Positions 50,272-53,077 are shown, numbered from the whole stretch's first letter. The stretch is DNA of 54,796 nt, filler included, from Sluysia triapertura (GCA_046118255.1; 4 parts of 4 records of this genome joined end to end with filler, not necessarily neighbours in it), one strand, 5' to 3'. Notes: generated by a model from the sequence alone, not told the origin. A program made the numbers and translations.

Positions 50272-50621
50272 ATGCAAAATGTACGATTCAATGTTCGATG
50301 GGTTAGAGCGATGATAGATACCGGCGCTACCATTACTGTGGTTCACAAAAATTTATAGCTACTTGGGAATCAATATTTTTAAACAGACCAAGTTTAATAA
50401 CGTATAATGTAAATGAAACACCCATAAACATAAATGGAACTCTATCTTGCTCTATAGAAGTACTGGGACAATATGTGCAGACTGTAGTAAATGTTTGGGA
50501 TAATAGTCCATACGAATTAATTTTAGGAATGGACGTTATAAATAAATTGGAGGATATGGTTATCCACAGTAAGTATGGATTTATAAAAATACCCCCAAAT
50601 TCAAATATGATAATACCGCAA
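50272..50621 (+). pseudogene. Retropepsin-type aspartic protease domain (missed by the ORF track)
   Basis: VRAMIDTGATITVV (DTG at 50317-50325); -1 frame change at ~50350; then NETPININGTLSCSIEVLG..VNVWDNSPYELILGMDVINKL (ILGxD motif at 50520-50534). Confidence 0.85.
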
Positions 50622-50624
50622 TAG

Positions 50625-53077
50625 CTAGTTCCACAAGTTGGTGATGAACTAACTTTATATCAAATGCCAATGTCAAATCAATCATTACAAATTCCAGACT
50701 TACCATTACCAGACATTGTTGAATCTACACTCCATTTATCAGATGTGTCATGGGGATCACCATCAACAATTACATCAGAAGAAAATTCAGATTCAGGAAT
50801 CAACTCAGATATTCAAGACACAATAATGATAATGACTAATATAAGAAAAAGAAACTACAATAATAAATACTGTTTTGGGAAAATAACTTGTTGGTTTACT
50901 ATCTTAATTGCGATTTTTCTGTCACTAATAACTAATGTCGCAGCAACAGAAACGGACGAAGAATATAAAAATGTGAATATATCTATAAATCATGGTAGGG
51001 AGCAGAAAATAATGATTACTGATATTTACAACCAATTTTGGAAATTTGAATTCATTTCTAAGAAAATGATTCTTCGATACAAATTCGAAATTTATTGTGT
51101 CTATTTGAAGCCATTGCAAGTTGGAAAGCCACATCATTTAAACTGTATCCCACATTGTTTACATTACGGTTATATACCAATGTTAATAATTTTCTCTTTT
51201 GATACTCCAAGAAATACACAAGACACACAGAAATTTATTAAACAAATAGATCAGTTGCGAAATAAAGAAACAACGAAAATACAGACAACTCCACCTGTAT
51301 ATAATACAATTAAGAAATCAATAGGTAATTCAAACAATTCAACTACAAAAGATACAATGGAAAACTCCTATAAATTCTTCATAATGTTACTAATTTTTAT
51401 AATACTATATATATTTTGGACCATACTCTATTTGATCCAAGTAAGTAAGAAAATACGGGTTCCCACGAATAATAAAAATCTTATACCTTTAATTTTAATC
51501 AATAATAACGATAGTTCAATGTCACGAAAAATCTTTTAAGACGGAATATTTCGAATTCTATAATGTAGACAATGAAGTAAAAGTAAAAATATTGAATGAG
51601 AACATTCATGCCAAGTTTGCATGTTTGAAACCTGCCAGACTTAATTTTAGCTCATGAATTATACACGAAAATTATATCGATAGTGAATTAAGATAACCAG
51701 TTACGATTTTCTCAGACATTTTACCGATCGAGGATAGACATATTACAGTAAGATTTCGTCATTCATCAAAATATTTACATTTCGCATTTAAAGGAATAAG
51801 AAAAAATCTAACAATATTGGAGATACTACGGAATGACCCAGCGTTAGTAATATTAATTGTAGCGGAAATATTGTTCATAATAGCTTTGGCTATAGTGGTA
51901 TTGACTATCATTATGTTTACCTCGAATAGATGTCGATACCCATGCCTACCACATAACAATAGTAATGATGACAACGACGCATACACAGTTCCACACAGAA
52001 ACAATTACGCTCCTCCTCCAGGTATGCCAATATTTCCACCTCCAATTTACGAATATGCTACAAATAGTCAAATACCGCTCAGGTACGGAGATTGGCAAAT
52101 GACTCAAGTCAAATCTACCATCTTAATATGTATCTACTTATCGTATATATCAAGTGCAAATTATCTATCAGAAAACGCCACACCTAAAGTGATTTTAATC
52201 TCTACTCAAAAAGACGTATATGCTAGGATAATGACTGACAAAATTAAGTTATTTTCGGCTAGAATAAAGTGCTGTATAATGGATTGGTGTGAAATTGAAA
52301 CAAGAGCAATTAAACAGGACTTCTATTGGTTTATACCTTGTATTGATCTTGCCGAATACCAACTAATTAGTGTAACTATAACAATGGAATTAGAATATGA
52401 CTCTCAAAGCGACTCCAGAACTATCCAAATCCGATATTATAAGATAAGAACTAAACCTTTTATCTTTCGACAATCTTCAACAAAAATGGAATTTCCAATG
52501 ATCATCTATCGCGATCCCCGAAATGTTGTACGCATTCATAATCCACTACACAATAATAAATTATTGATTGCTTTCGAACTGAGTAATGGATTACGTTATG
52601 GAATAATATTGCCTAACGAAACCATTCGTTTATATCATATTCCGAACAATGCACTCATGTTTGTTCTGGATAATAAGAAAAGACGAAATACTTAATTCTA
52701 AAGGATTCTGGCCATCAATGAGGTATCACGACGTACAGGTACCAATTATAAATAAAAACGGAAATGATTCGGATTCAAAACCAAAGAAAATACTTCAAAT
52801 CACTAACAATGGTACGAATGTAACGAATAACGAGTATAAGAACATTAATTTGACTACTACTAGTACAAATAAGATCACAATTCTAAATACTACTAGGTTA
52901 AATGAGAAACCGCATAAGGAAAACTCTAACTGCTCAACTATAAAAGAATCCAACAATAATTTCATAACAACTGTAAATTACATTTTAATAATAACCTCTT
53001 TATTAACCGTAATAATCAATTTTATTATTCCAAAGTTTTACCTGTTTATTAGGCATAGGGGACATTTCTTTATATAA
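50625..53077 (+). pseudogene. Membrane-glycoprotein portion of a polyprotein (three signal peptide-ectodomain-TM units)
   Basis: In frame with the protease across TAG 50622-50624. ORFs 50664, 51817 and 52649 join through +1 shifts at ~51500 and ~52680 and stops at 51655 and 51694. Six alternating hydrophobic segments; multiple N-x-S/T sequons. Confidence 0.7.

Follow-up and report, generated by a model that had tools for sequence, protein, structure and literature searches.

Giant retroelements of planarians are abundant and have been proposed to be proviruses, and much of their coding space is unexplained. Burro elements of planarians are longer than 30 kb and are present in thousands of copies; they bear RING-type motifs along with accessory ORFs, acquire stops and frameshifts as they decay, and have an ORF1 ordered gag, env-like part, PR, dUTPase, RT, RH and IN (PMC6431247); giant planarian retroelements are also reported to be active in stem cells (PMC6884822). 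Elements of the Belpaovirus Atlas/Cer type are LTR elements with tandem glycoproteins in a polyprotein with protease, with cleavage sites and transmembrane helices arranged as in phleboviruses; in Atlas virus the Gn-like part measures 421 aa and the Gc-like part 498 aa (PMC9094657). Flatworm errantiviruses (GAG-ENV-POL, with a gB-type env) are likewise Ty3/Gypsy elements with signal-ectodomain-transmembrane proteins (PMC13524379), rotifer LTR elements carry a DEDDy exonuclease and small transmembrane ORFs (PMC5408684), and sORF2 of Drosophila is a small transmembrane protein linked to envelope-independent spread (bioRxiv 10.1101/2025.03.14.642691).

Here we describe a cassette of a protease, an acidic linker and three small membrane units at 50272-53077 (plus strand) of a 54,796-nucleotide window, by which we mean the whole stretch of DNA that was analysed. 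It resembles Burro/GYPSM1 elements in its probable flatworm host, its very high copy number and its decay, and also in having a retropepsin, a RING-type motif, accessory ORFs and polyproteins that are long and made of several domains. However, in Burro ORF1 the env-like part precedes PR, and dUTPase and RT follow it, whereas here the protease is followed by the linker, the three membrane units and a stop. Because of this mismatch in order the cassette cannot be Burro ORF1, only an accessory ORF, and the Burro section of PMC6431247 does not describe an ORF of a protease followed by membrane units. Membership of the Burro family is putative, as no LTR, gag, RT or integrase lies near the cassette in the window and none of the collections searched yielded a Burro sequence. 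In Atlas, env follows pol and Gc is a class II fusogen, while here three units of 107-270 aa stand directly behind the protease; ectodomains of 142, 107 and ~270 aa including stalks fall short of the ~400 aa or more of env fusogens. The errantivirus env differs in being one large multi-domain fusogen rather than three small units behind a protease, and the rotifer LTR ORFs and Drosophila sORF2 are stand-alone ORFs and not a protease-headed chain.

Structural polyproteins of alpha-, flavi- and bunyaviruses are chains of transmembrane segment, tail and internal signal that are cut by signal peptidase, and they include class II fusogens; in alphaviruses the protease comes first and is both a serine protease and the capsid. 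As these are RNA viruses, we use them as a working analogy only. Neither the papers cited here nor the titles listed in our literature searches report a protease with three small glycoproteins behind it, although the primary Burro paper (Grohme 2018) and its supplement may do so; passages of PMC11410931, PMC6884822, PMC8532177 and PMC10175614 provide no further ORF detail.

Results

A retropepsin and three predicted membrane units lie in a decayed coding sequence

Read as one, 50272-53074 comprises 934 codons and requires at least six breaks, namely three frame changes (~50350, ~51500 and ~52660) and three in-frame stops (50622, 51655 and 51694). By chance 36.7±3.5 breaks are needed, with a lowest value of 27 among 300 dinucleotide shuffles of the same interval; 72 other stretches of the window, from both strands, gave a minimum of 17 and a median of 32.5, and the opposite strand of 50272-53074 needed 29. 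Since the plus strand has far fewer breaks than the shuffles and the other stretches, the interval is a decayed coding sequence. Its features, together with those that flank it in the same repeat, are the following:

50040-54796, plus: many-copy repeat that holds the protease, the membrane units, a RING ORF and a last ORF, and continues past the window end
50272-50552, plus: retropepsin, an aspartic protease of clan AA, interrupted by a frame change behind its DTG motif
50349-50358, plus: X XXY YYZ heptamer and zero-frame stop, candidate -1 frameshift site at the first frame change
50553-50882, plus: acidic Ser/Asp/Pro linker of ~110 aa, with a basic stretch at its end and the in-frame stop 50622-50624
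50883-50945, plus: signal-like segment 1, a predicted internal signal ending V-A-A, with small residues at -3/-1
50946-51371, plus: ectodomain 1, 142 aa, 3 sequons, 3 Cys, Thr/Asn stalk
51372-51437, plus: transmembrane segment 1 (TM1), with a hydropathy of 2.83 in a stretch of 19 aa and a C-side net charge of +3 to +4
51438-51522, plus: basic loop of 15 aa and signal-like segment 2, with the second frame change (~51500) inside
51523-51843, plus: ectodomain 2, 107 aa, 2 sequons, in-frame stops 51655-51657 and 51694-51696
51844-52107, plus: transmembrane segment 2 (TM2) and a Pro-rich cytosolic tail of 63 aa, two Cys near the membrane
52108-52158, plus: signal-like segment 3, ending S-S-A; a Met at 52099 lies three codons ahead of it
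52159-52968, plus: ectodomain 3, ~270 aa, with the third frame change (~52660)
52969-53077, plus: transmembrane segment 3 (TM3), basic tail of 12 aa and stop
50625-51539, 51697-52695 and 52607-53077, plus: the three ORFs called in the interval
53319-53660, plus: splice-acceptor-like site (AG ending at 53336) and a RING-finger ORF from ATG 53352, in the repeat
53903-54796, plus: splice-acceptor-like site (AG ending at 53920) and an ORF from ATG 53927 that exits the window

The original prediction had named a DTG and an ILGMD motif, an acidic/Ser linker and three signal-like segments, as well as three long hydrophobic segments, a Pro-rich tail and six sequons in an Asn/Thr stalk, and all of these are present. 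They had been joined into one frame of ~930 codons. The parts, their order and the small number of breaks relative to chance favour this; the frame itself is broken at least six times, so that we infer, rather than read, a single continuous frame from the protease to TM3. The motifs and membrane units are spread over four frame pieces, with signal-like segment 2 and the protease each interrupted by a frame change. Short introns were considered as a cause of the frame changes and rejected, no donor-acceptor pair being found at any of the three, and 50272-53077 is intronless. Among the contigs searched there was no intact single-ORF copy, and the longest pieces listed inside the repeat measure 220-420 nt. 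Because 16 contigs continue before 50270 with letters unlike those of the window, and the summed contig depth at position 50226 is 39, a cut or rearrangement immediately upstream of the protease is probable in this copy, and we treat the ATG at 50272 as a candidate start only.

The protease is split at a candidate frameshift site

The N-terminal half of the protease alone (28 residues) matched the RVP model with 21.6 bits, over the cut-off of 20.7. With X placed at the breaks, the domain aligned with positions 2-90 of the 92 of PF13975 (29.6 bits against a cut-off of 28.2, E 1.1e-6), whereas without the frame change only the N-half matched, at 20 bits. Thus read, with X at the breaks, a D[TS]G motif is followed by a full-length domain ending in hydrophobic-hydrophobic-G-x-D, as in retropepsins, and by sequence both halves belong to one retropepsin. 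Alignments with DDI1 and DDI2 were full-length and non-significant.

Programmed -1 frameshifting involves an in-frame slippery heptamer and a stimulatory structure 5-9 nt downstream, common to copies. At the first frame change the heptamer A AAT TTA stands in frame with a stop immediately after it, and a 6-bp stem of ordinary stability (z -0.53) begins 5 nt downstream. Such a heptamer precedes 48 of the 8,176 stop triplets in the window (0.6%), and four further in-frame sites occur among 922 codons. The same heptamer is reportedly used by Rous sarcoma virus, a use that the review searched does not mention. Where the frame first changes, summed depth shows no dip (58,998, the bin averaging 67,911), and no indel falls there among the 12 of 33 indel rows listed; unlike the other two frame changes, this one therefore hints at a family-wide feature. 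The third frame is open over 50348-50404, and a path through it also fits Pfam fully, so Pfam scores fail to separate the two candidate paths across the protease break.

Alternating hydrophobic segments predict three type-I membrane units

The six hydrophobic segments alternate between short and long, and TM1, TM2 and TM3 carry net charges of +2 to +4 on their C sides. Hydropathy, charge bias and (-3,-1) residues together predict the layout of a chain cut by signal peptidase, in which internal signals alternate with stop-transfer helices; whether the signal-like segments are cleaved was assessed solely with manual rules. Segment 1 is preceded by a net charge of +4 and followed by -3. Segment 2 ends in V-Q-C and is hydrophobic on either side of the frame change, and the downstream frame offers no ATG ahead of ectodomain 2. 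Segment 3 is weakly hydrophobic, as cleavable signals are, and shares a stop-free frame with TM2, whose tail contains a PPxY motif (PPIY at 52039); motifs of this kind are linked to WW domains. The parts predicted to be lumenal hold 13 sequons over 515 residues and the cytosolic parts 2 over 173, so that the contrast is weak.

Ectodomain 3 comprises, in order, a predicted Ig/FnIII-like domain, a second beta-rich part and the Asn/Thr stalk with six sequons. A single-sequence model of its first 168 residues had a mean pLDDT of 47, with blocks of 50-63 over residues 11-90, and placed seven strands over residues 11-95 in an arrangement resembling an FnIII/Ig sandwich (best Z 7.9). The model gave no structural match at Z >=8 and no Foldseek match at E<=0.001; compared with Fusexin1 and Gn-Gc, this low-confidence model reached E 0.017 and TM-scores of 0.21 and 0.27. 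We predict, with low confidence, that part of ectodomain 3 is Ig-like, a common generic fold. Mutual paralogy of ectodomains 1-3 was undetectable and the window holds no second copy of any of them; for ectodomain 1, the searches returned no family or homolog.

The cassette belongs to a diverged many-copy repeat

Copy evidence comes from the contigs of one run, which contains 45% of the sampled words and is possibly the window's own source (one contig, of depth 50, is identical to 47650-49004). Contigs were placed on 47650-54796, and their summed depth is not equal to copy number. It amounts to 2,044-108,494 per bin over 50040-54796 and to 51-95 over 47650-48844, so that the repeat stands 40-2,000-fold above the flank. 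The 7,054 records divide into 408 at >=99% identity, 1,093 at 95-99%, 2,699 at 90-95% and 2,854 below 90%, which leaves 5,553 less than 95% alike, and up to 56 contigs cover one listed place in the repeat. From depth and spread of identity it follows that 50040-54796 is a diverged many-copy family.

High depth is continuous from the protease via the linker into unit 1. At the stop 50622-50624, other copies differ inside the codon at more than 99% of depth (23 contigs), and at 51655-51657 they do so at 99% of depth (29 contigs); for the stop 51694-51696 there was no differing row among the 40 of 725 substitution rows listed. Near the third frame change an indel row covers 71% of depth in three contigs, among 12 of 33 indel rows listed. 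These differences are evidence that two stops and the third frame change, that is three of the six breaks, are private to the window copy, which has therefore decayed. At the second frame change the copies may differ locally on a larger scale, since depth is down to 94 at 51501.

Upstream, the 50040-50270 bin has a mean depth of 53,634 although position 50226 has only 39; a very high-copy piece of ~150 nt likely lies at ~50040-50200, with a short single-copy stretch between it and the protease. Depth is moderately raised (340-2,040) over 48845-49322 and 49562-50039, further small repeats on this side.

Downstream ORFs follow acceptor-like sites

The RING ORF from ATG 53352 matched zf-RING_2 with E 0.0069, under the cut-off, and its acceptor tract has 13 pyrimidines in 17 positions. 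The ORF from ATG 53927, with an acceptor tract of 14 in 17, contains one frame change at ~54520, a beta-rich N part and a C part with a weak likeness to DnaQ exonucleases, where two models of NCBIfam for 3'-5' exonucleases gave E 0.008 and 0.01, well short of their cut-offs. A MATH domain was considered for this ORF on the basis of motifs; a low-confidence model gave cupin-like rows only, at best Z 6.9, and speaks neither for nor against it. With a threshold set post hoc, an acceptor-like site precedes 24 of the 2,102 ATGs in the window, both downstream ORFs included, and there is no strong one inside 50272-53077.

In agreement with the original prediction, no gag, RT or integrase is visible nearby: all six frames of 47651-50292 and the three plus-strand frames of 53076-54796 lack them, in a copy that is cut at both ends. 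The window contains no long direct (LTR-like) repeat, and the many-copy repeat runs past its end. A second RING ORF (45344-46834, minus strand, 496 codons, zf-RING_2 E 4.3e-5) is unrelated to the 53352 ORF by BLAST. Long inverted repeat arms, 88-95% complementary, flank it within 43855-47643, which looks like a TIR element with a RING gene.

Other features of the window

The window includes exons of FERM, MCM and DOCK genes and, at 20823-21944, an open frame that is likely an exon of a host receptor, with a single transmembrane segment and a tail rich in His, Gln and Pro. A prohormone exon (13552-13872, minus strand) has a signal-like stretch and the sequence KR-AAWHDMPW-GKR, whose peptide resembles the schistosome npp-5 peptide AAYMDLPWamide (PMC9495596) and so points to a flatworm-type host. 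The host match with Burro thus depends on this one neuropeptide resemblance for flatworm, and on low GC (mostly 16-38% in the window) for planarian.

Three close ORFs on the plus strand (26111-27721; 130, 117 and 193 codons) have no convincing family and are possibly cargo of another large element. A decayed Tc1/mariner-type transposase occupies 39370-40449 (DDE_3 E 1.6e-4), and a reverse transcriptase fragment (8792-9088, minus strand, RVT_1 E 7.4e-7), 41 kb from the cassette, is by its motifs probably a LINE relic. A decayed minus-strand frame at 47700-48600, in single-copy DNA, has a Cys-rich motif (CPTTNCTTC) and no Pfam match. The assembly gaps at 17819-17918, 28880-28979 and 43665-43764 each consist of 44 N, the 12-base linker TTAATTAATTAA and 44 N, and produce false repeats.

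Homology searches

No collection searched returned a homolog of the cassette, and as these may hold few flatworm repeat proteins, the blanks do not prove novelty. Word-index searches gave no match for 51697-52692 at longer and near lengths or for the protease at longer lengths, and HMMER over 1.84 billion representatives gave none for 50346-51500. A search of the Atlas collection with two ORFs, an exact look-up of ten ORFs, and searches of viral contigs, metagenome contigs, prokaryote genomes and plasmids were likewise without a match. PHROGs yielded nothing convincing, BFVD nothing at E<=0.001, PDB sequences nothing for the protease C-half or the 53927 ORF, and tRNA and Rfam searches nothing in the window; no RNA dataset carrying the sampled words was listed.

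Discussion

Our best reading, to which we give a probability of roughly 0.55, is that the many-copy flatworm repeat present here in a decayed copy encoded one membrane polyprotein in its retropepsin-headed frame, and that this frame was an accessory cassette carried by a giant LTR retroelement of the Gypsy group (Burro-like). The parts, their order and the repeat they have in common can be read directly from the window and the contigs, as can some breaks private to this copy. The cassette is real, decayed, multi-copy and of unusual layout, and is likely cargo of a giant Gypsy-like element. The original prediction of a cassette from an undescribed virus or giant retroelement holds in part: the protease and the membrane ORFs do share one mobile, many-copy repeat, and its giant-retroelement branch fits both the flatworm host and the neighbouring RING and exonuclease-like ORFs. 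Its virus-type envelope, in the bunya-, flavi- or alphavirus sense, is not supported: ectodomains of 142, 107 and ~270 aa are too small for known fusogens, and the modelled domain looks like a generic Ig/FnIII sandwich. A separate doubt, that the protease might be an independent Ty3/Gypsy insertion, is made improbable by its place in the same repeat as the membrane ORFs, with high depth continuous into unit 1.

In the reading that we prefer, protease and linker would be made in the cytosol and segment 1 would act as an internal signal. Host signal peptidase would then cleave after segments 1, 2 and 3 to release three small type-I glycoproteins. The protease would stay tethered to the cytosolic face of the ER via segment 1, where it could dimerise, as retropepsins act as dimers, and trim the cytosolic linker. 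Because the ectodomains are small, fusogens are disfavoured, and we prefer adhesion, receptor-binding or host-modulating surface proteins, with an Ig-like fold and a PPxY tail. The RING and exonuclease-like ORFs may be made from spliced subgenomic RNAs; more speculatively, the PPxY tail and the RING neighbour point to ubiquitin-linked trafficking. That unit 2 lacks an ATG of its own argues for the polyprotein, and that unit 3 has its own Met just before the signal argues against it.

The same Met, together with those shortly before segment 1 (50826 and 50832; 52099 for segment 3) and the acceptors that the downstream ORFs seem to use, would suit a set of separate genes, each with its own Met or a spliced RNA, in which case decay of this copy would account in part for the appearance of one frame. 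We think there is only a slim chance of this, as 50272-53077 contains no strong acceptor-like site, unit 2 has no Met, TM2, its tail and unit 3 lie in one stop-free frame, and other copies differ inside the stop between the protease and unit 1. Still further from what we observe is a multigene family of the host, or a mosaic that arose by chance when an unrelated piece of a Gypsy protease was inserted in front. The window near 50272-53077 does lack a mobile-element core gene and depth varies 50-fold along the region, but six breaks against at least 27 in the shuffles, the intronless sequence and high depth running unbroken from protease through linker to unit 1 make it barely credible. The envelope or structural region of an endogenised non-LTR virus, either a large DNA virus or one of an unknown group, that was amplified in the genome would explain the compact same-strand ORFs, the glycoproteins, the RING ORF and the lack of RT and integrase in view, and giant virus-transposon fusions such as Teratorn exist (PMC10175614). 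We nevertheless consider this improbable: there is no match in viral contigs, nor in BFVD at E<=0.001, and no fusogen-sized ectodomain. In addition, a retropepsin head and very high copy number suit LTR elements better.

Two further readings keep the retroelement and change how it works. In one, the frame change in the protease is a programmed -1 ribosomal frameshift, such that most ribosomes would stop after the DTG half and a minority would make active protease and the three glycoproteins. The in-frame heptamer directly before the stop, the stem 5 nt downstream and the depth that holds there, with no listed indel (12 of 33 rows) where the third frame change has one, are consistent with this. 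However, A-runs are prone to indels, and a coincidence with a heptamer is for that reason commoner than the 0.6% implies; moreover, the indel listing covers 12 of 33 rows, the stem's z-score is only -0.53, the third-frame path gives a full Pfam match too, and a lesion inherited from one master copy would give the same picture. No title in the literature search, which covered titles, concerned a frameshift inside a retropepsin. We therefore regard the frameshift as tentative and rather unlikely. Bolder, and unlikely in our view, is an undescribed lineage of flatworm endogenous retrovirus-like elements, in which one chain, cut by signal peptidase and switched on by a -1 frameshift inside the protease, would supply three small surface glycoproteins along with an additional retropepsin tethered to the membrane. 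A giant retroelement would in this way contact cells or control its host without a fusogen.

Should the Burro annotation already include the cassette, the gain would shrink to its topology. If the frameshift inside the protease is real, it would be an unusual control point. Moreover, if our preferred reading is true, the locus represents a new ORF layout for LTR elements, and its glycoproteins, with the PPxY tail and the RING neighbour, become candidates for cell contact or host trafficking.
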